Under the pieces are notes generated by a model, which ran no database searches, was not told the DNA's origin, and saw nothing but the letters and a program-made list of their open reading frames with translations. The position numbers and the translations under genes are program-made. Of a stretch of 54,934 nt of DNA, positions 3,734 through 53,848 are shown piece by piece (the first letter of the stretch is position 1; each line of letters opens with the position of its first letter). This DNA comes from Candidatus Uhrbacteria bacterium (GTDB taxonomy: Bacteria; Patescibacteriota; Patescibacteriia; UBA9934), in the NCBI GenBank assembly GCA_018673485.1, contig JABHCP010000016.1:1-54934 (forward strand), written 5' to 3'.

Positions 3734-4753
3734 TTAATAAGTGTAATCCTGCTCATCAATCTGATCGAAGAGAAAGATTTGAGGCTCAGAGCCATAATCT
3801 TCACGCCAAATATCAGCAATCTCTGTGTACGATGCAAAAACAACATTTTCCTCGTCTTTGATGCCATTGAGCATTCTAATAATCTCAGCGGCTTCTGTTG
3901 CTCCACCAAAAAGACTTGATTGTGGAATTGGGATAGCGGCAGTAAGCATCTGATTCTCTACTCTGCCGTCGTCGATATACTTCAATAGTACTTTTATATA
4001 ATCAGCCTCGGTCGCAAATAAATTATCGTTTCGTCTCCCATTGCGATTCGCGTGTGGACCAGAGCCGATCGTTATCATTCGTCCCTCAAAATCATGAACT
4101 GTGAAGTCGTCCCCAGTGCCGGCTGGAATCCAGACACCTGACGTAGCGTCATCATCACTAAAATCTCCCAGATGATGATTGTACCCAACTGCACCACTAA
4201 TTATCTCGGGGCAAAAAGTAAAATCTGTGTGCGTATCCCCTTGCTGGCATGCATCGAATTCCTCAAACTGAGGCTCGTAATCCCAAACAACACCAACCAT
4301 GTCAGTAATATCATCAGTGACTAATTCACCGACGTATCTTGTATCTGCATAATTATATTCACTCTTCCAATCCCAGGCACCCTCGTGATGAGGATCAATT
4401 TCAAAGTCATATTCGTCAACCAAGAACTGAACAACGTTCTTTCCATCAGTTAATTCCTGCATTTCACCTGTCTCGCAGTTCAACACACCTTCAAAATATT
4501 GATAAGAAGCTTGCAGATTTAACTTATAACCATTCTCATGCAAGATACTTGAAAACTCCAACAATCGATCGCGATAGTCCTCATAAGGAAGACAACTTGT
4601 ATAAATGTCACCCTCCTCGATATGCGCCATCAACGTTACATAAACCTTTGATTCTGGCTCCTGATCCTTCTGCATTAAAAATGCAGCCAGAAAACAAAAA
4701 ACGATCAATACGATCGCGACACTTGTAAAAATATATATCTTCTTCATACCCAC
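3734..4753 (-). CDS. Membrane-anchored hypothetical protein, possibly polysaccharide-deacetylase-like barrel
   Basis: N-terminal TM helix; AHIEE and IDPHHE putative metal-binding motifs; fold is inferred. Confidence 0.6.
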   Translation of the reverse strand: MGMKKIYIFTSVAIVLIVFCFLAAFLMQKDQEPESKVYVTLMAHIEEGDIYTSCLPYEDYRDRLLEFSSILHENGYKLNLQASYQYFEGVLNCETGEMQELTDGKNVVQFLVDEYDFEIDPHHEGAWDWKSEYNYADTRYVGELVTDDITDMVGVVWDYEPQFEEFDACQQGDTHTDFTFCPEIISGAVGYNHHLGDFSDDDATSGVWIPAGTGDDFTVHDFEGRMITIGSGPHANRNGRRNDNLFATEADYIKVLLKYIDDGRVENQMLTAAIPIPQSSLFGGATEAAEIIRMLNGIKDEENVVFASYTEIADIWREDYGSEPQIFLFDQIDEQDYTY

Positions 4754-26735: not shown

Positions 26736-26822
26736 GCCAAAATTAGCATAAATGGCTTGACAAAAAGCCATTTTTGTGTTTAAATACTCAGTCTTTCGTT
26801 CCCCCTACAACCTGGAGTGATC

Positions 26823-27902
26823 ATGAACAAGGACACGCTCATCCGCATTGGCGGCCGCCTGTGGGCAGCCGTCATCAAGTACACCCCCATCGTCATCGGT
26901 GCCATCTGGTGCTTCCTGCGCAAGTGGACACCCATCATGTGGTCCGCGCTCGTGAGCTGGAGCTGGCGCTTCATGTGTTTCGTTGGTCGATTGATCCGCA
27001 CCACGGCCATCAGCCCTCTGCGTGGCAGCCCCAAGGTCTGGCTCTTCGGAGCTACCTGGGGAGTCCTCTGCACTGGTATCGCCGTATTGTGCTTCACCGT
27101 CTTCTACGGTCCGGTCGAAAACCCGATCACCAAGGATTCGCTGATCGCCACCTGCGACATCGAGGATGGCCCGGAGGAGTGCGACGAGGACGGCCCGGAA
27201 GCCCCAAAGGCTCGCTCGCTCGTTCGTGGTATCGAACCCAACGAAACGCAGTACGTGCTCAAGCAGTACAATGAGTTCGTGGGCAACCCCACCTGGGCCA
27301 AACGTACCAATGACTGCCTGACCGAGTACTGGCACTACTTCGAGGACGCGGAGCGCTTGACCCGATACCCTGCCGAGCTCATCGCTGGCATGTCGCTGAT
27401 CGAGGCCGAAGGCTGTCAGTTCATCCCTGCCCGAAACGGTGACGGTGGCATCGGCCCAATGCAGATCACTGGCTACCCCGGTAGCGGCATCATCAAGCGC
27501 GCAGCCAAGATCCTCAGCATCTCGGAAGGCGAGGTGGATTACAAGAACGACTACCTCCACAACGTGGTGGTCGGAACCGCGATCCTCGCCAACTACGAGA
27601 GCCAACTGCAGAGTCGCGGCCCGGGTCTCTTGGCCTATAACCGTGGGCCAGGGAACGTCCGCAAGGACATGCGTCGCGCCAAGCTCACCAGCCTGAAGCG
27701 CCGCGTGCTCTCGGATTTCCGTGGAGCGATCCCCTACAGCGCCGGGCGCGGTGGCAAGCCGCGGATCTACGCAGACAAGGTCTTGGCCGGCATGGTCATG
27801 ATTGACCGCATGTCGCGTGGCCTCACACTGAACACACTCTCGAGCCTAGATCTCGACGAAATCCCTGGATCCGACCCGTCCCAAGACGGTAAGAACCGCT
27901 GA
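26823..27902 (+). CDS. Membrane-anchored lytic transglycosylase (SLT-like) protein
   Basis: MSLIEAEG (catalytic Glu candidate), GIGPMQI, NVVVGTAIL, LLAYNRGPGNV; N-terminal hydrophobic segments; GGAG SD; high GC. Confidence 0.8.
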   Translation: MNKDTLIRIGGRLWAAVIKYTPIVIGAIWCFLRKWTPIMWSALVSWSWRFMCFVGRLIRTTAISPLRGSPKVWLFGATWGVLCTGIAVLCFTVFYGPVENPITKDSLIATCDIEDGPEECDEDGPEAPKARSLVRGIEPNETQYVLKQYNEFVGNPTWAKRTNDCLTEYWHYFEDAERLTRYPAELIAGMSLIEAEGCQFIPARNGDGGIGPMQITGYPGSGIIKRAAKILSISEGEVDYKNDYLHNVVVGTAILANYESQLQSRGPGLLAYNRGPGNVRKDMRRAKLTSLKRRVLSDFRGAIPYSAGRGGKPRIYADKVLAGMVMIDRMSRGLTLNTLSSLDLDEIPGSDPSQDGKNR

Positions 27903-27922
27903 GATCGTTGACCAATCGAGAC

Positions 27923-27960
27923 TCTCCGACCTCCGCCCACTTCGTGGCGGGGGTCTTTGC
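27923..27960 (+). terminator. GC-rich terminator
   Basis: GACCTCCGCC..TTCG..GGCGGGGGTC followed by TTTG. Confidence 0.6.
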
Positions 27961-29202: not shown

Positions 29203-30405
29203 ATGATCCACACCATGCTTCTGACCCTGTGCCTCGCTATGTCCTCTGTGGCCCTTGGGCAGGAGGATGAGATGCCCGGTCAGCTCGACATCCAAGAGCT
29301 TGAAAGCGCACAACAGCTCGACCCGAGCCACGAAATCGAACCAGAACTCATTGCCGCGCTCGAAGAACGGGATCCGAAAACGTTCGCTCTGCTGGTTGGA
29401 ACTTCCAGCTTCCGGCACCTCGATGAACTTTCGCGACCCGACGCAAAAACGCTGTGTTTTGCCAGTGCGCTGTCGCTGTACAAATCGATCCCCACCGGAG
29501 ATGTGATCGCATTGTGCGAACCAGAGGACGCAATTCGGGCTCAGATCATCGCCTCGGCTACGCAGATTCGCGATCGAGCACAAGCGGGAGACACAATCCT
29601 GTTCGTATTCATCGGCCTAGGTGTCGGTAGCGACTTTGACGAGCCGACATTTTTAACCCATGACATGACGCCACTTAGCGACCAGCTACAAGCAACGTCT
29701 ATCGGGGTAGATGAAATGGTCTCAAGCCTACGTAAGGATAATGTAAAACTGATCATGGTGCTCGATGCCTCGATCGATGCTACCCTTACATTGAGCTCAG
29801 GTGGCACCCTTGTTACTACAGGCCCTATTGCCTCGAACATTTCAGGCAAACACCTGACAATCTCTTATAGTGCCAGTCCTCGTGAATGGCAACTGGATGA
29901 GAATTTGTTCGGCCGTACGCTAGCCGACGGACTCGCTGGCGCCTCTGACCTGGATCAGGACAGCCAAATCTCGGCCGCTGAGCTCAAGAGCTTCATGGTG
30001 ATGCAGATCGATGCGCACACCAGTAAGTCACTTGGCTTGCGTGGTGAGTGGAACGATTCGACCGAGCCGTTCCTGACGCTACCCACCCCCGAACCGATCG
30101 TCGAGGTCATCGAACCACGCTCCTGGCGTCCCAGTGCACCACCCGCAATGCGCAAGATCGTCATCATTGGTGGTAGCTCCATGCTCGCGACAGGTGCGGT
30201 GACCTACGCCCTGGCCTGGCGCTCACAAAACCAATTGGAAGATCTGCACTACAACAACCAGTCTGAGTACAACTCGATGGTGTCGCAGCGCAACGCACTT
30301 CTCTGGACCAGTCGTGGTACCGGCGCCCTCGGCGCTATCGCGCTCGGTGGAGGGCTCATCCTTCACCCGCAAGGTGCAACCGTGAGCGTCACCGCTCGCT
30401 GGTAA
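29203..30405 (+). CDS. Secreted caspase-like (peptidase C14 fold) protein, catalytic dyad apparently absent
   Basis: Signal peptide; TFALLVG, GDTILFVFIGLG (usually SGHG), IMVLDAS (usually DAC), LAGASDLDQDSQISAAEL; C-terminal Gly-rich hydrophobic helices. Confidence 0.7.
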   Translation: MIHTMLLTLCLAMSSVALGQEDEMPGQLDIQELESAQQLDPSHEIEPELIAALEERDPKTFALLVGTSSFRHLDELSRPDAKTLCFASALSLYKSIPTGDVIALCEPEDAIRAQIIASATQIRDRAQAGDTILFVFIGLGVGSDFDEPTFLTHDMTPLSDQLQATSIGVDEMVSSLRKDNVKLIMVLDASIDATLTLSSGGTLVTTGPIASNISGKHLTISYSASPREWQLDENLFGRTLADGLAGASDLDQDSQISAAELKSFMVMQIDAHTSKSLGLRGEWNDSTEPFLTLPTPEPIVEVIEPRSWRPSAPPAMRKIVIIGGSSMLATGAVTYALAWRSQNQLEDLHYNNQSEYNSMVSQRNALLWTSRGTGALGAIALGGGLILHPQGATVSVTARW

Positions 30406-30423
30406 CACCAAACTCGAACTCAA

Positions 30424-30465
30424 ACGCCCGGACTCTCACTCGAGAGGCCGGGCGCTGTTTTTTTA
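30424..30465 (+). terminator. GC-rich terminator
   Basis: CGCCCGG...CCGGGCG stem then CTGTTTTTT. Confidence 0.7.
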
Positions 30466-30487
30466 AAAAAATAATGGAAGGCTATTA

Positions 30488-41961: not shown

Positions 41962-42038
41962 TGGTGACCCCGGTAGGACTCGAACCTACAACCTTATCCT
42001 TAGGACGGATCTGCTCTATCCAATTGAGCTACGGAGCC
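41962..42038 (-). tRNA. tRNA-Arg (anticodon CCT)
   Basis: GGCTCCGTAGCTCAATTGGATAGAGC...GT-CCT-AA...GGTTCGAGTCC...CACCA cloverleaf with encoded CCA. Confidence 0.95.
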
Positions 42039-46801: not shown

Positions 46802-49369
46802 TTATTTCCAAGCTTTTAATTTACCCCAATGCTTTCCGTGCTCCACGTCCACTATCAAAGGAACCTCGCTATCCCACACGCCTTCCATAATTTTCTTAAT
46901 TTGCACGACGGCCTTCTCAACATCACTATTCTTTACCTCAAAAACTAATTCATCATGAACTTGTAGTAACATCTTTAAATCAAGGTCAGTGCTTTCAACC
47001 CAAGTCTGCACTTTCAACATTGCCATCTTTACCAAATCAGCCTGTGTTCCTTGAATTGGCATATTCACTGCCATGCGCTCAGCTGCGGCGCGCAACATTT
47101 GCATGCCAGAATCAATTTCCGGCAAATATCGACGACGGCCAAACAAGGTCTCAACATATTTATCCTTGTGCGCTTTATCCTTCATCTCCTCAATGTAATT
47201 TGCAATGCCGGGATGAAGTTCAAAGTACTTATCGATGAATCCTTGGGCCTCTTCTTTGGAAAGCCCGCTTGAACGCGCTAGATTGCGTGGACCCATGCCG
47301 TACAAAATTCCAAAGTTTATTGCCTTTGCCGCATGACGCTCATGCTTATCGATCTCGCTCTCTGGCTTGTCTAGAATCTCGGACGCTGTGCGTGTATGAA
47401 TATCCGCACCTTCTTTAAACGCTCTAATAAACGAACTGTCCTTGGCCATCACGGCCGCGAGTCGAAGTTCAAACTGCGAATAATCACATGCCACGAGAGT
47501 GTATCCATGTTTTGACGTAAACGCATTTCGAATCTCGCGACCAAGCTCGGTTCGCACTGGAATATTTTGCAAATTAGGATCTGATGACGACAACCTTCCA
47601 GTCGCAGTGACTGTTTGATTGAATGACGAATGAATTCTTCCATCTTTTTCGATCAACTCAGGTAACGCGTCTACATATGTGGACTTCATCTTGGCAAACT
47701 CTCGATACTTTGAAACCAATGGAATGATTTCATGCGTTTCCCACAGTTTTTCAAGTTCGCTCGCTGCAGTCGAAAGTCCTGTCTTTGTTTTTTTGATTCG
47801 CTTAGTTGGCAACTTAAGCACATCAAATAGAATATGCGAGAGTTGAGAAGGGGATTTGATATTGAATTCCTCACCAGCAAACTTATAGATCTTAGCAGTG
47901 AGACTTTTAAGCTCTTTTTCAAACTTATCAGAGAGTTCTTTTAAATGATCCGCATCAACCTCAATCCCTTCACGTTCCATGATGTACAGATTACGAGCAA
48001 GCGGCATCTCCACATCAGTAGCTAACTTTAAAGAACCTTCTTTGGCGAGCAACTTTTCAAGTTTTTTATATAAACCGATAATGACTTCCATCTGTGAATC
48101 CAAAGCTGCATCTTCTTTTAGATTCTTTTTAAAGTACTTCTTAGCACAAGCTGATATATCAAAATCTCTCTCATGTGAAGCCACCAAATAAGCCGCAACC
48201 ATAGTATCGAATACTTTTCCTTCGATAGAGCTCTCAAGTAAGTGCATTATTGATTTTAAATCATGTCCGATAACCAACTTTGCTTTATTGATAAGCTCGA
48301 TAACTTGCTTCACCTCATCTTGTGTTTGTGCTTTTGCGATTTTAGTTCCGTCTGAGAAAACTATCTCAATTGAACCCTTTCCAAACAAGTCCGCCTGCAC
48401 GTTGCGGGCCGCAACGTATAGATCATCGGCTTTAAGTTGATCGATGGTGGCTACCTTCTGTCTTACAATCGGCGCCTGCTCTGCAGAATCTTCAGACCTT
48501 TTATATTTTCTTAACAAATTTCTAAACTCTAACTGTTCCAACATTGGAACAAGTACTTCTACATCAGGATCTGTAAATTTCGCGTCAGTTATTTTAAATC
48601 CAGGTAGCTTAACCCTATCAATCAACTGAACGAGCGCTTGCATGTCCTTGAGTTCCTTTTCTTTACCACGTAAACGCTTTGCGTACTTCTCCTCAAGCTC
48701 ATCGCGCTTGAGTGCTCGCAGTAAATTATTAATTGATCCATGTTCCTGCAACAAAGTTGCCGCTGTCTTTTTTCCAATACCCTCAATGCCTGGAATGTTG
48801 TCTGACGGGTCGCCCATCAACGCTTTGAAATCGACCATCTGCTTTGGATCTAACCCATAGCGATCTTGGACAGCTTTTTTATCGTATTCAACAGTCTCTG
48901 AAATTCCTTTTTTAAAAGCAATGACTCTAACAGCTCCATCAACAAGCTGAAGCAAGTCCATATCGCCGCTCAATATCTTCACGCTGACATCATCCTTAGC
49001 ATATTTCTTTGCAAGTGTCGCGATCACATCATCAGCCTCATAGCCCTCAGCTGACAACGAAGGGATTCCATAAACATCTAGCGCATCTTTAATGACATCT
49101 ATCTGCTCGTACAATTCATCTGCCTTTTTCTCGCGCGTCCCTTTGTACTCGGCGTATGCCTCATGCCGAAAAGTGGCACCCGGCAAGTCCCAAGCGACAG
49201 CCATGAAGTCTGGTGCATATTGTTCACGCATTTTTTCAATGATATTTAAAAAACCATACACAGCATTTACCACCTGCCCGCTTGAAGTTGTTAGCGGCGG
49301 AATAGCATGCCATGCACGGTGTAAAAGTGCATTTCCATCTAGAACCAAAAAGACTTTTTTCTTTGCCAT
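46802..49369 (-). CDS. polA: DNA polymerase I
   Basis: LDGNALLHRAWHA, YEADD, GDPSDNIPG, TGRLSSSDPNLQNIP, DYSQFELR, AKAINFGILYG, LQVHDEL; start at MAKKK. Confidence 0.98.
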   Translation of the reverse strand: MAKKKVFLVLDGNALLHRAWHAIPPLTTSSGQVVNAVYGFLNIIEKMREQYAPDFMAVAWDLPGATFRHEAYAEYKGTREKKADELYEQIDVIKDALDVYGIPSLSAEGYEADDVIATLAKKYAKDDVSVKILSGDMDLLQLVDGAVRVIAFKKGISETVEYDKKAVQDRYGLDPKQMVDFKALMGDPSDNIPGIEGIGKKTAATLLQEHGSINNLLRALKRDELEEKYAKRLRGKEKELKDMQALVQLIDRVKLPGFKITDAKFTDPDVEVLVPMLEQLEFRNLLRKYKRSEDSAEQAPIVRQKVATIDQLKADDLYVAARNVQADLFGKGSIEIVFSDGTKIAKAQTQDEVKQVIELINKAKLVIGHDLKSIMHLLESSIEGKVFDTMVAAYLVASHERDFDISACAKKYFKKNLKEDAALDSQMEVIIGLYKKLEKLLAKEGSLKLATDVEMPLARNLYIMEREGIEVDADHLKELSDKFEKELKSLTAKIYKFAGEEFNIKSPSQLSHILFDVLKLPTKRIKKTKTGLSTAASELEKLWETHEIIPLVSKYREFAKMKSTYVDALPELIEKDGRIHSSFNQTVTATGRLSSSDPNLQNIPVRTELGREIRNAFTSKHGYTLVACDYSQFELRLAAVMAKDSSFIRAFKEGADIHTRTASEILDKPESEIDKHERHAAKAINFGILYGMGPRNLARSSGLSKEEAQGFIDKYFELHPGIANYIEEMKDKAHKDKYVETLFGRRRYLPEIDSGMQMLRAAAERMAVNMPIQGTQADLVKMAMLKVQTWVESTDLDLKMLLQVHDELVFEVKNSDVEKAVVQIKKIMEGVWDSEVPLIVDVEHGKHWGKLKAWK

Positions 49370-49396
49370 ATAGATAGATTTTACTTGATTTTTGCT

Positions 49397-49570
49397 AAAA
49401 AAAGAAGGCGCCCCCAGCTGTGCCTTCCCGTACAGCTGAGGACTAGTTCGTGTGTTGGGCGCCATCAAGGCAAGGCCAGGAAATGCAGAGCACTTCAATT
49501 TGCCCCAGGCCGCAAAGGATCGTACCGACACACTATCGCACTCCTGCAACTTCACCCGCGGAAGTACGAT
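49397..49570 (-). ncRNA. Candidate ~170-nt sRNA or leader with intrinsic terminator upstream of polA
   Basis: TTGACT-N18-TACGAT at 49577-49606; stems ATCGTACT/GGTACGAT and CCTCAGCTGT/ACAGCTGGGG; then TTCTTTTTTT. Confidence 0.45.
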
Positions 49571-49605
49571 ATTTACATCGTACGTTGAAATACATAATTA
49601 AGTCA

Positions 49606-50066
49606 AAAAGTGATCCGCCCGGCATCCATGAGGACGCCGGGCGGGTGGAGAGACGCGAGAGGAACGAGGTCCGCTCACATCAAGGAGGGTGAGATCAGGT
49701 GGTCGCCAAGACGATGGCGCGCGTGGGGGGGGACAAGCGGGCGCAGGACCCGACAACCACCTGATCTCGAAATGTAGGACCGGACCAACAAGCTCAAGAG
49801 CTCATCGGCGACAGCGAGCATCCGGCGAACCGGGGGAGTCTCGCTGCAGAAGGGCTGCGCGACAAGAGGATCGCGCGCCGTGCATCGTTCAGCCGTAGCT
49901 CCGTAGAGCAAGCGGCCCGGTCCAGGGTCGTAAGGAGTCTGCAGCGAAGGGGAGGCTCGAGGTTCCCCTTACCCTCATCCGGGCGCGACTCGCACGCTGT
50001 CGATATTCCTTAACCCTTCGTGACAGCACACGTGAAACGCGCGGGATCACGAATTTCTAAATCTGC
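49606..50066 (-). ncRNA. Candidate ~450-nt GC-rich structured non-coding RNA, class unknown
   Basis: Promoter-like TTGACG-N17-CACTAT at 50073-50101, many nested stems with minus-strand G-U pairs, UACG and UUCG tetraloops, terminal terminator; no credible ORF. Confidence 0.6.
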
Positions 50067-50155
50067 TCCAAGATAGTGCCATAAACTACAAAACACGTCA
50101 ACAATAAAGGACTCGCGTTTTACAGCGAGCCCTACGACGAGCGATGCACGGGTCG

Positions 50156-50533
50156 TTAGATCAGCCCCGACAAGATCAGGCCCAAGTCCACTGCAACGTG
50201 GCAGAACTGATCCATCTTGATGGTCTTGATGATGTTATAGCGGGCCTTGAGCGCATCGATCACCATGTGCGAGACGATCCTGATCACAAGTGCCAGTGCC
50301 GTCATGCTAAAGCTCAGTGCCAGACTCACACCAGGCACGATACTGAGCTCGAAGCTTGGCATCAGCCAGAGCAGCATGATCGGCGCATTGGCAGTGACGG
50401 CGTGGTAAAAGAGCACTTCACGTGATTTACCCTTTTCCATCGCCATCCATGCGCTTTGCAGACCAAAGTCCCCCCACACGAACAGAAGGTACATGACAGT
50501 CAGCTTAACGAGAACGAGCAGAGCGAAGTCCAT
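50156..50533 (-). CDS. DUF3307-like membrane protein
   Basis: GDFGLQSAWMAMEK..H..SHMVIDALK..DQFCH pattern; AGGAGG SD; high GC. Confidence 0.7.
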   Translation of the reverse strand: MDFALLVLVKLTVMYLLFVWGDFGLQSAWMAMEKGKSREVLFYHAVTANAPIMLLWLMPSFELSIVPGVSLALSFSMTALALVIRIVSHMVIDALKARYNIIKTIKMDQFCHVAVDLGLILSGLI

Positions 50534-53352: not shown

Positions 53353-53440
53353 ATTCTTATAGCTAATTTCAATACCACTTAAATTTTTATAAACGAAAAG
53401 CCGCCTTATGTCAGGCGGCAGACTAGCCAGATGGCCAGTA

Positions 53441-53848
53441 TCAAACGGCGAGCGCCTCTGCGAGCTCAGAGCTGAGCGAGTGCCAGAAGCTCCCGACCTC
53501 GAGGTCAACGACCCTTCCGATCAGGAGGGTCCTGCACGAGCGCGAGCGATGCGGCCGCAAGATGTGCAGGGAGACGTCACCGAGAATGAACACGTCTGCC
53601 GTGCACTCCCCGACTTTTCTCACTGCCGTGCCACGCACTGCGCTCCCTGGCATGGTCACGCGGAAGTTGAGCCGGGGAAGCCCATGGTGCGCCGACCGAA
53701 CCTCATCGACCGTGCAGCCGAGGCTATGAAGCTCTTCCGCGATATCCTGCCACACGAGATCACCGTGCGCAGTTACATCGAAGAAACAGTGGGTAACAAC
53801 CCACAACCCTTCGTCTTTCTCGACAGTTGTCGTAGGATCTCCGCTCAT
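53441..53848 (-). CDS. Hypothetical protein (GC-rich stand-alone gene)
   Basis: AAGGAG SD; TTGACA-N17-TATATT promoter at 53895-53923; terminator GCCGCC..GGCGGCTTTT near 53396-53419; overlapping + strand ORF lacks such signals. Confidence 0.65.
   Translation of the reverse strand: MSGDPTTTVEKDEGLWVVTHCFFDVTAHGDLVWQDIAEELHSLGCTVDEVRSAHHGLPRLNFRVTMPGSAVRGTAVRKVGECTADVFILGDVSLHILRPHRSRSCRTLLIGRVVDLEVGSFWHSLSSELAEALAV

Follow-up and report, generated by a model that had tools for sequence, protein, structure and literature searches.

A probable lineage-confined noncoding RNA gene of about 460 nt between DUF3307 and polA in a Candidatus Uhrbacteria genome

Introduction

Several large bacterial RNAs, among them OLE, GOLLD, HEARO, ROOL and raiA, are hundreds of nucleotides (nt) long, multi-stemmed and stand-alone; they were found as GC-rich intergenic regions of AT-richer genomes and their function was unknown at discovery. 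Much smaller is the 6C RNA of Actinobacteria, which is well under 100 nt, carries two C-loops and is highly conserved in sequence across a phylum, and in Firmicutes the RNA RoxS/RsaE occludes Shine-Dalgarno sequences with several exposed C-rich motifs. 6C is reported to bind G-rich ribosome-binding sites (AGGGGGG of panD) via its C-rich loops, without Hfq or ProQ (PMC6486639). Here we analyse a GC-rich element on the minus strand of contig JABHCP010000016.1 (assembly GCA_018673485.1; 54,934 nt, the whole stretch being referred to as the window), from a Candidatus Uhrbacteria genome of 1.03 Mb and 44.5% GC that we call G000. An earlier note, made from the sequence letters, had read this element as a new large noncoding RNA (ncRNA), and that interpretation is supported. 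Two outcomes that the note had named as refuting it, a match to a known family and a protein frame conserved in homologues, did not occur. To judge from sequence signals and from relatives, the element is very probably a real, independently transcribed and lineage-confined ncRNA gene of ~460 nt, with a sigma-70-type promoter, an intrinsic terminator and modular GC-rich domains. Across the genus it has stayed at one site, between the DUF3307 gene and polA, with a rapid turnover of sequence and domain content. The interpretation needs two corrections: the RNA is narrowly distributed (four species of one genus plus one likely member elsewhere), and it evolves very fast and so is not a universal housekeeping RNA.

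Results

A strong minus-strand fold within a predicted transcription unit

All coordinates are those of the window, and the RNA unit lies on its minus strand. G003, G002 and G001 denote three other species of the same genus (g1), and G038 is a member of another family. Compared to shuffled sequences, whose mean was -178.7 kcal/mol, the minus-strand RNA folds considerably better, at -233.5 kcal/mol (z -8.91), and none of 100 shuffles did as well. The plus strand, that is the antisense, gave z -3.20, and a repeat of the folding run returned -8.7 for the minus and -3.8 for the plus strand; the strand asymmetry (-8.9 vs -3.2) is clear. The element was also the strongest fold of 12 regions compared in the G000 genome, where the z of RNase P RNA was -6.5 (sense) and that of tmRNA -2.3, and where seven further GC-rich stretches ranged from -0.4 to -4.5 over both strands. 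The stability of the fold is far beyond chance.

The gene lies between that of a DUF3307 membrane protein (50156-50533; Pfam DUF3307 match, E 3.8e-9) and polA (46802-49369), on the minus strand. Its GC content is 62-64%, vs 44.5% for the genome, and amounts to 0.64 at 49600-49899 vs 0.37-0.47 in the polA gene. The element is present in one copy in the G000 genome. Contigs of public DNA runs from at least two studies span both junctions with 0 differences, which tells against an assembly artefact, one of these runs possibly being the window's source sample; the runs that contain the locus are marine and seawater metagenomes from several studies. In four public DNA runs the contigs were identical to the window and no variants were seen, so that no population-level covariation could be read from them. 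The unit comprises the following features, those between promoter and terminator being taken from the predicted fold.

50073-50101, minus strand: promoter, with -35 TTGACG at 50101-50096, a 17-nt spacer, and TGG followed by the -10 CACTAT at 50081-50073
49605-50067, minus strand: predicted transcript of ~460 nt, its 5' end placed ~7 nt past the -10 (GGAGCAG...) and its 3' end in a T-run
50018-50052, minus strand: 5' hairpin H1 (CGUGAUCC...), common to G002 and missing in G003
49925-50017, minus strand: domain A, multi-branch, with the AAGGGGA/UCCCCUU stem
49777-49924, minus strand: domain B, multi-branch, closed by GGACCGGGCC/GGUCCGGUCC, the closing helix having 16 pairs
49691-49768, minus strand: domain C, with a C8 run (49732-49725) in the apical loop above a 20-bp helix and an irregular stem
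49652-49681, minus strand: 3' hairpin with loop CCUCGU, the loop being identical in G003
49646-49650, minus strand: CUCCA, predicted to form the closing stem P1 with UGGAG (50070-50066) near the 5' end
49605-49644, minus strand: intrinsic terminator of the RNA, with a 13-bp stem at 49644-49615 (11 G-C pairs), a 4-nt loop and a T-run at 49609-49605

Both ends of the transcript are predicted from sequence signals. The promoter was not listed by a consensus scan, because its -10 fits at only three of six positions. Every minus-strand element that the earlier note had described was located: the promoter, the stems GCTGTC/GACAGC, AAGGGGA/TCCCCTT, CGCGA/TCGCG and CAGCGAG/CTCGCTG (the last around CCGG-TTCG-CCGG), the helix closing the multibranch domain, GCTC-TACG-GAGC, the 13-bp helix enclosing a C-run and the 13-bp terminator. 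The closing helix GGACCGGGCC (49923-49914) pairs with GGTCCGGTCC (49786-49777), and the GCTC-TACG-GAGC hairpin is at 49909-49898. Once G-U pairs are counted, the GAGATCAGGTGGT/ACCACCTGATCTC helix is 20 bp long (49768-49749 with 49710-49691) and encloses the C8 run. Both the minimum-energy and the centroid fold are multi-branched, with three or four separate domains. The minimum-energy fold keeps most of the stems read earlier, with GCTGTC/GACAGC and the local GCTC/GAGC hairpin giving way to alternatives; because of this exchange of two stems, the 5' third of the fold is unsettled.

Known RNA families and coding potential

We searched the whole window against Rfam 15 at gathering thresholds, and the sole match was a tRNA at 41965-42038. 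At E <= 10, the region 49300-50400 gave four weak matches, the best of them 18.9 bits vs a threshold of 60, and all on the terminator hairpin or the flank. The element stays below the gathering thresholds of RNase P, tmRNA, SRP, 6S, 6C, RsaE, OLE, GOLLD, HEARO, ROOL and raiA as well as of group I and II introns and riboswitches, and no riboswitch or leader family matches it. RNase P RNA and tmRNA, which the earlier note had discounted at this locus, are rejected as identities: Rfam gave no such match, ARAGORN found no tmRNA in the window, and the genome's own genes sit on other contigs, rnpB at G000:C18:39252-39683 (158.8 bits) and ssrA at C1:7219-7604 (94.9 bits). A search of phages and plasmids with blastn gave no match to the element, and a pattern scan of viral contigs gave 0 matches.

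An identity as signal recognition particle (SRP) RNA was rejected as well, since no SRP model matches the element, searches of the genome found no partner protein and conservation across the order is lacking. The idea of a divergent SRP RNA was dropped because no Ffh or FtsY was found; a scan for a degenerate helix-8 motif gave one weak candidate, at C21:8383-8400, without Rfam support. In a paper on the signal recognition particle and Saccharibacteria (PMC10768705), the genes cited carry the APY09 locus-tag prefix and are taken to belong to the host. As a separate observation, G000 had 0 matches to either the small or the large model of SRP RNA, and likewise 0 to PF02978 (the M domain of Ffh) and to PF00448 (the GTPase domain of SRP54). 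Over 41 genomes of the order (G000 and 40 relatives) the small SRP RNA model matched none, and eight had only marginal Walker-A-type pieces of PF00448, at no more than 22.7 bits; control genomes were positive in these searches, e.g. 12 of 14 with RF00169 and all 14 with PF00448. An Ffh/FtsY/SRP RNA system may thus be missing, or very divergent, throughout the order.

The element is not 6S RNA either. Its fold is multi-branched, with no rod with a central bubble, and RF00013 gives no match in the genome, and none on the element at E <= 10. Independently of the element, RF00013 matched none of the same 41 genomes. Membership of the 6C family was rejected too: an exposed C-rich loop is present, but the RNA is ~460 nt long, belongs to another lineage, has no Rfam match and turns over fast. 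By analogy, it may work like 6C without being a member.

A protein-coding gene is also rejected, as no frame is conserved among homologues. The GC-rich sequence keeps stop-to-stop frames open for up to 97 codons, and there are minus-strand open reading frames (ORFs) of 53, 78 and 52 amino acids (aa). The best frame covers 59% of the GC island, vs 85-100% for most of the genome's 126 GC islands. Five internal ORFs had no real match in Pfam, and no Shine-Dalgarno sequence was read ahead of candidate starts, in agreement with the earlier note. Five homologous RNAs gave 60 six-frame segments of 20 aa or more, which share only two matches between species, 14 and 30 aa long (E 0.003-0.004). The indels that separate G000 from G003 (24, 5, 8, 3, 10, 1, 7 nt and so on) are not multiples of three. 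As to the islands themselves, those 126 stretches with GC of at least 0.60 in 200-nt windows add up to 61 kb in a 44.5% GC genome, and most are a single open frame.

The unit in related genomes

A BLAST search with the 470-nt element against 60 relatives found only its own genome (1 of 61), even the G003 homologue being missed; the homologues in the genus were located by synteny. The DUF3307 gene is directly upstream of polA across the genus, with polA identities to G000 of 81% (G003), 67% (G002) and 67% (G001) and intergenic lengths of 786, 742, 402 and 262 nt in G000, G003, G002 and G001. A promoter-RNA-terminator unit occupies the same DUF3307-polA site in all four species, as listed below with promoter, RNA length and fold.

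G000: TTGACG, 17 nt, TGG + CACTAT; ~460 nt; z -8.9 sense, -3.2 antisense
G003: TTGACT, 17 nt, TGG + CATAAT; 437 nt; z -6.3 / -6.8 sense, -1.8 antisense
G002: TTGATT, 17 nt, TGG + CACAAT; ~300 nt; z -7.0 / -6.3 sense, -5.6 antisense
G001: degraded -35; ~150 nt; z -0.17 sense

Between species the intergenic region is 24-56% identical vs 63-90% in the flanking genes; for G002 and G001 the identity is 90.5% in the DUF3307 gene and 44.7% in the intergenic region. The terminators of G003, G002 and G038 have their own stem letters and the same form. Judged by its sequence, the G001 copy looks reduced or decaying.

Outside genus g1 the setting is different: DUF3307 occurs in 15 of 68 genomes of the family, with other genes downstream of it, and G004 and G005 have coding sequence upstream of polA and no RNA unit. 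A metagenome scan via the DUF3307 alignment yielded 13 loci, of which three are identical to the G001 type and the other ten have no RNA unit downstream.

Two covariance models were then used: R1, built on domain C together with the 3' hairpin, and R2, in which G038 was included. R1 scored 145 bits on G000, 150.1 on G003 and 30 on G038, and did not hit G002 or G001. Over 151 genomes of the order it returned G000, G003, G038 (30 bits, E 1.4e-5) and G150 (24.2 bits), the last lying inside a 541-aa ORF and hence taken as chance. The G038 locus adjoins genes unrelated to the DUF3307-polA locus, and outside the modelled part it has a TTGACA promoter, a 5' GGGAGCAGC (G000 starts GGAGCAG) and a GGGAG/CUCCC closing stem, along with a long hairpin with a C8 loop, a terminator and a fold z of -6.9 to -7.4. 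On the 30-bit model match and these outside features, the G038 element is a probable homologue of ~215 nt. R2 gave four of 151 genomes in the order and nothing new, the fourth, G126, having only 18.3 bits at E 0.096, and in the class it found its own genome only (1 of 151). In all, the models detect the RNA in 3 of 151 order genomes, to which synteny adds two divergent copies. A pattern scan of genome contigs gave 52 stretches. With R1, 51 of these scored at most 23.5 bits and are regarded as chance matches in high-GC genomes; the remaining one, L058, scored 150.1 bits, the same score as the G003 locus L011, and is taken to be that locus. The ~300 genomes sampled from order and class are all 0.5-1.3 Mb in size, which is compatible with an ultra-small-genome (CPR-type) lineage.

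Compensatory changes between G000 and G003

To follow the structure through evolution, we mapped the minimum-energy structure of G000 (154 pairs) onto a MAFFT alignment of G000 and G003. In the alignment 81% of cells pair, vs 37-45% with partners slid by 1-3 columns, a control that is biased because the structure was derived from G000. Fourteen pairs changed on both sides, vs 2-8 when slid, and 2 of 500 column shuffles reached 14. The closing helix of domain B (helix 9) has 93.8% of cells paired across the two species, and in G002 a GC helix of 10-12 bp, GGCCGACCGG/CCGGUCGGCC, closes an analogous domain. The helix of domain C is preserved in G003 via A-U to G-C changes plus one bulge, and in the 3' hairpin (helix 17) two pairs are altered on both sides. 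Other parts hold less well. Domain A is poorly kept in G003 (helices 3-8 with 50-100% of cells paired), and H1 falls in a 24-nt gap in G003 and reads CGTGATCC in G000 vs CGTGGTCC in G002. P1 is weak (5 bp) and not in the G003 fold; G038 has an analogous GGGAG/CUCCC closure. Loops stay constant while stems change, as seen for the C-run (C8 in G000, C7 in G003, C8 in G038) and for CCUCGU (G000 and G003). Altogether, these comparisons point to a structure that is maintained by compensatory change.

Predicted pyrimidine-rich loops

The C-run is predicted to be unpaired with probabilities of 0.89, 1.00 and 1.00 in G000, G003 and G038, respectively. The base composition of predicted unpaired positions was as follows.

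This RNA in G000, G003 and G038: C 38-44%, A 20-27%
This RNA in G002: C 29%, A 22%
RNase P RNA of G000: C 9%, A 54%
tmRNA of G000: C 20%, A 45%

Predicted exposed stretches are UCCCCCCC, ACCCUCCUU, CCUCGU and CCUCUU in G000, CCUCCCCCCC, CCUCGU and CUCCUCC in G003, and GCCAACCCUCCCCCCCCG in G038. According to these models, the RNA would display anti-Shine-Dalgarno-like pyrimidine strands on a rigid GC scaffold. A G-run scan, which is noisy and includes internal starts, places G5-6 runs shortly before some likely start codons of G000. The best perfect complement of the loop, at C18:55214, falls within a reading frame. The loop UUGUCCCCCCCCAC (49723-49736, minus strand) could pair at 11 of 12 positions with the codons for VWGD in the DUF3307 gene (50481-50470). 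Searches of the G000 genome found no Hfq or CsrA domains.

Neighbouring features

Three further features lie beside the RNA gene.

50108-50133, minus strand: intrinsic terminator of the upstream DUF3307 gene, nine pairs then a T-rich tail
49370-49606, minus strand: a second small unit between the RNA and polA, outside the RNA, with a promoter-like site, ~170 nt and a terminator-like hairpin
49383-49378, minus strand: -10-like TAAAAT of polA, 8 nt before the ATG at 49369

An equivalent of the DUF3307-gene terminator, with other letters, is found at the same place in G003, G002 and G001, and by its sequence this putative terminator sets the DUF3307 gene apart from the RNA unit. The second small unit (~235 nt as a whole) has its promoter-like site at 49606-49577 and a hairpin with a T-run at ~49462-49393. 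Its fold is weak (z -1.7 over 49372-49606), so that we do not take it for a structured RNA. The same layout is seen in G003 (L011 ~4070-4300, minus strand), and the unit is absent from G002 and G001, in which the big RNA's terminator stands directly before the polA -10. All four species of the genus have a -10-like hexamer, TAAAAT or TACACT, exactly 8 nt ahead of the ATG of polA, which suggests that the polA mRNA may be leaderless or nearly so, its -35 region overlapping the preceding terminator.

Elsewhere in the window, GC islands also occur at 2237-2984, 26808-27953, 29904-30472 and 53383-53826. Other low-coding GC islands of the genome lack an Rfam family and have moderate fold signals, at C20:12449-12950 (z -4.5/-4.0) and at C5:9150-9604 (z -4.1), the latter beside two tRNAs. 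Two repeat families were also seen in G000. In one, which occurs in at least seven places (C7:27838, C13:66868, C13:48348, C13:68674, C13:10447, C17:20889 and C3:38533), a small hairpin precedes two G6 runs separated by a few bases; the other is a ~60-nt unit with G6-7 and G5 runs in four places (C8:3192, C11:73882, C19:60603 and C21:8710).

Discussion

Our best explanation of the locus as a whole joins a new ncRNA gene to a trans-acting mechanism, and we put its probability at roughly 0.4. The mechanistic part is tentative and regarded with some doubt, being drawn by analogy. The RNA would act in trans as a chaperone-free riboregulator that pairs with G-rich or Shine-Dalgarno-like sites. Its GC-rich helices would form a rigid, nuclease-resistant scaffold presenting pyrimidine-rich single strands, namely the apical loop with its C7-8 run and loops of the CCUC type (e.g. 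CCUCGU and ACCCUCCUU). By pairing with G-rich or Shine-Dalgarno-like stretches of mRNA, these loops could block or alter translation, in the manner of the C-rich loops of 6C and the C-rich motifs of RoxS/RsaE. In favour of this mechanism are the constant C-run that is predicted to be unpaired, the high share of C among predicted unpaired positions, the lack of Hfq and CsrA matches in the genome and the G5-6 runs ahead of some likely starts. We infer transcription, the RNA ends, the targets and the mode of action alike.

Several observations weigh against this explanation. A genome-wide complement search gave no target that stands out: over 5,394 genome windows with a G4 run, the best complements of the loop, its own antisense aside, lie mostly inside coding regions, and the DUF3307 VWGD site ranks only about 11th among complements in 2 Mb (both strands) and is imperfect in G003. 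The G002 RNA, which has the 5' leader and first hairpin in common with G000, is without the C-run domain, and the G001 RNA, at 150 nt and with a degraded -35, has no fold signal (z -0.17). Given these two species, the RNA is dispensable or replaceable, and the C-run cannot be a universal working part. A length of ~460 nt is far above that of known C-loop sRNAs (small RNAs), and the C-rich loops could equally be protein-binding sites. The evolutionary evidence has its own weaknesses beyond the bias of the slid-partner control. A full-length alignment is possible for G000 and G003 alone, so that the covariation comes from one species pair and one distant match, and MAFFT misaligns parts of them, with 54 of 154 G000 pairs broken in G003 and 24 in gaps.

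If the loops bind protein, the RNA might be a scaffold that binds or sequesters one, titrating RNA polymerase in the manner of 6S/Ms1, or S1, or a pyrimidine binder of the KH or cold-shock type, with no mRNA pairing. A length of ~460 nt in several independent domains is more typical of ribonucleoprotein RNAs than of pairing sRNAs, exposed C/U-rich loops are classical protein-binding sites, and with 6S RNA in 0 of 41 order genomes there is a niche with no recognised occupant; as Hfq and CsrA had no matches, the partner would be another protein. We nevertheless consider such a scaffold unlikely. The fold lacks the 6S rod with its central bubble, the 6S model finds no match at E <= 10, and a housekeeping partner predicts broad conservation, whereas the RNA is in 3 of 151 genomes by model, is reduced to 300 nt in G002 and lacks a fold signal in G001. 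No partner gene is linked to it, the neighbours being different in genus g1 and G038. That difference in neighbours, with the likely G038 homologue beside unrelated genes, also speaks against a local role at the DUF3307-polA locus, either as a leader or attenuator of polA or on the DUF3307 mRNA through the loop-VWGD complementarity. Such a role would account for the site directly upstream of polA being kept in all four species and for the RNA terminator of G002 and G001 ending ~20-35 nt before the polA ATG. The 11 of 12 match of UUGUCCCCCCCCAC to DUF3307 codons, about 11th best in 2 Mb, fits it as well, as does the fact that G003 altered both partners (target GGGGAGAC, loop GUCCUCCCC). The G003 pairing needs a bulge or mismatch, however, and RNAduplex favours another site there; G002 and G001 keep the G6 target yet have no C-run loop, and the complementarity was noticed post hoc. 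By its sequence signals, polA further has in all four species a -10-like hexamer of its own, 8 nt ahead of the start codon, a unit of ~235 nt with promoter and terminator separates the RNA from polA in G000 and G003, and no riboswitch or leader family matches. Taken together, a cis-acting role is rather improbable.

Still less probable is a non-functional GC-rich remnant, whether of a horizontally acquired or decayed gene or of a mobile element, or a hypervariable spacer that happens to fold well. GC-rich insertions are common in this genome (126 islands, 61 kb, most of them spanned by open frames), the intergenic region varies from 262 to 786 nt at 24-56% identity vs 63-90% in the flanks, the G001 copy looks decayed, and other genera have no RNA at either flank. 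A remnant would hardly show a z of -8.9 with strand asymmetry, recurring in G003, G002 and G038 where the primary sequence is unrelated, nor a promoter and terminator retained in three species, nor compensatory, non-random changes in stems around constant C-run and CCUCGU loops. Nor does the element resemble phage, plasmid or viral contigs, and neither a second copy in the genome nor a shared remnant of a frame was found. The lack of a shared frame bears equally on the last alternative, that the locus encodes one or more small proteins, such as those of the 53-, 78- or 52-aa minus-strand ORFs. Open GC-rich frames of up to 97 codons from stop to stop count in its favour, but the best of them spans 59% of the island vs 85-100% for most of the 126, no frame is conserved or matches Pfam, no Shine-Dalgarno sequence was read, and the indels are not multiples of three. 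We regard small proteins as extremely unlikely.

In ultra-small host-dependent bacteria, very few ncRNAs are known, to our knowledge, besides rRNA, tRNA, RNase P RNA and tmRNA. A literature search for structured ncRNAs in Patescibacteria/Saccharibacteria found none, most subscription journals lying outside that search. This RNA, which folds better than the RNase P RNA of its own genome, has a predicted promoter and terminator of its own and loops rich in pyrimidines rather than A, is a concrete candidate for studying gene regulation in reduced genomes without the usual RNA chaperones, and its fast domain change within one genus gives a rare view of a large structured RNA being built up or lost. 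A bolder idea, which we hold to be a long shot, is that large modular RNAs of ultra-small (CPR-type) bacteria form a new class with this RNA as its first member. A hyper-stable GC scaffold would gain and lose whole domains within one genus (150, 300, 437, 460 nt), and through its several anti-Shine-Dalgarno-like C/U-rich loops the RNA would regulate translation globally and without chaperones, or would act as a sponge that takes up ribosome-binding sites or a pyrimidine-binding protein. If true, this would place a regulator in organisms with no detected Hfq, CsrA, 6S RNA or SRP components and would offer a natural example of RNA gene birth and decay. The narrow distribution limits the impact of the finding and makes a universal machine unlikely, and the function proposed here is a hypothesis.

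Among known systems, the RNA shares with 6C a GC-rich hairpin that shows a run of at least six C in its apical loop. It differs from 6C in being multi-domain and ~460 nt long, with one long C-run plus CCUC loops, in evolving fast and in belonging to another phylum-level lineage. Like RoxS/RsaE, it is predicted to expose several C/U-rich motifs; RoxS/RsaE is ~100 nt and conserved across Bacillales, whereas this RNA is four times larger and matches no model. With 6S/Ms1 it has in common a stand-alone RNA gene with promoter and terminator of the abundant type, and a 6S analogue could be expected since no 6S RNA is found in the order (0 of 41), but the rod-and-bubble architecture, a 6S match and conservation across the order are lacking. 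In size, complex multi-stem fold, stand-alone organization and the way it was spotted, as a GC-rich intergenic region, it is like OLE, GOLLD, HEARO, ROOL and raiA; those RNAs span many genera with strong covariation, in contrast to 3 of 151 order genomes by model here. Collectively, it most resembles the C-loop sRNAs (6C, RoxS/RsaE) by its proposed mode of action and the orphan large ncRNAs by its size and discovery, and what sets it apart from both groups is the combination of a very narrow distribution, whole-domain turnover within a genus and pyrimidine-rich loops.

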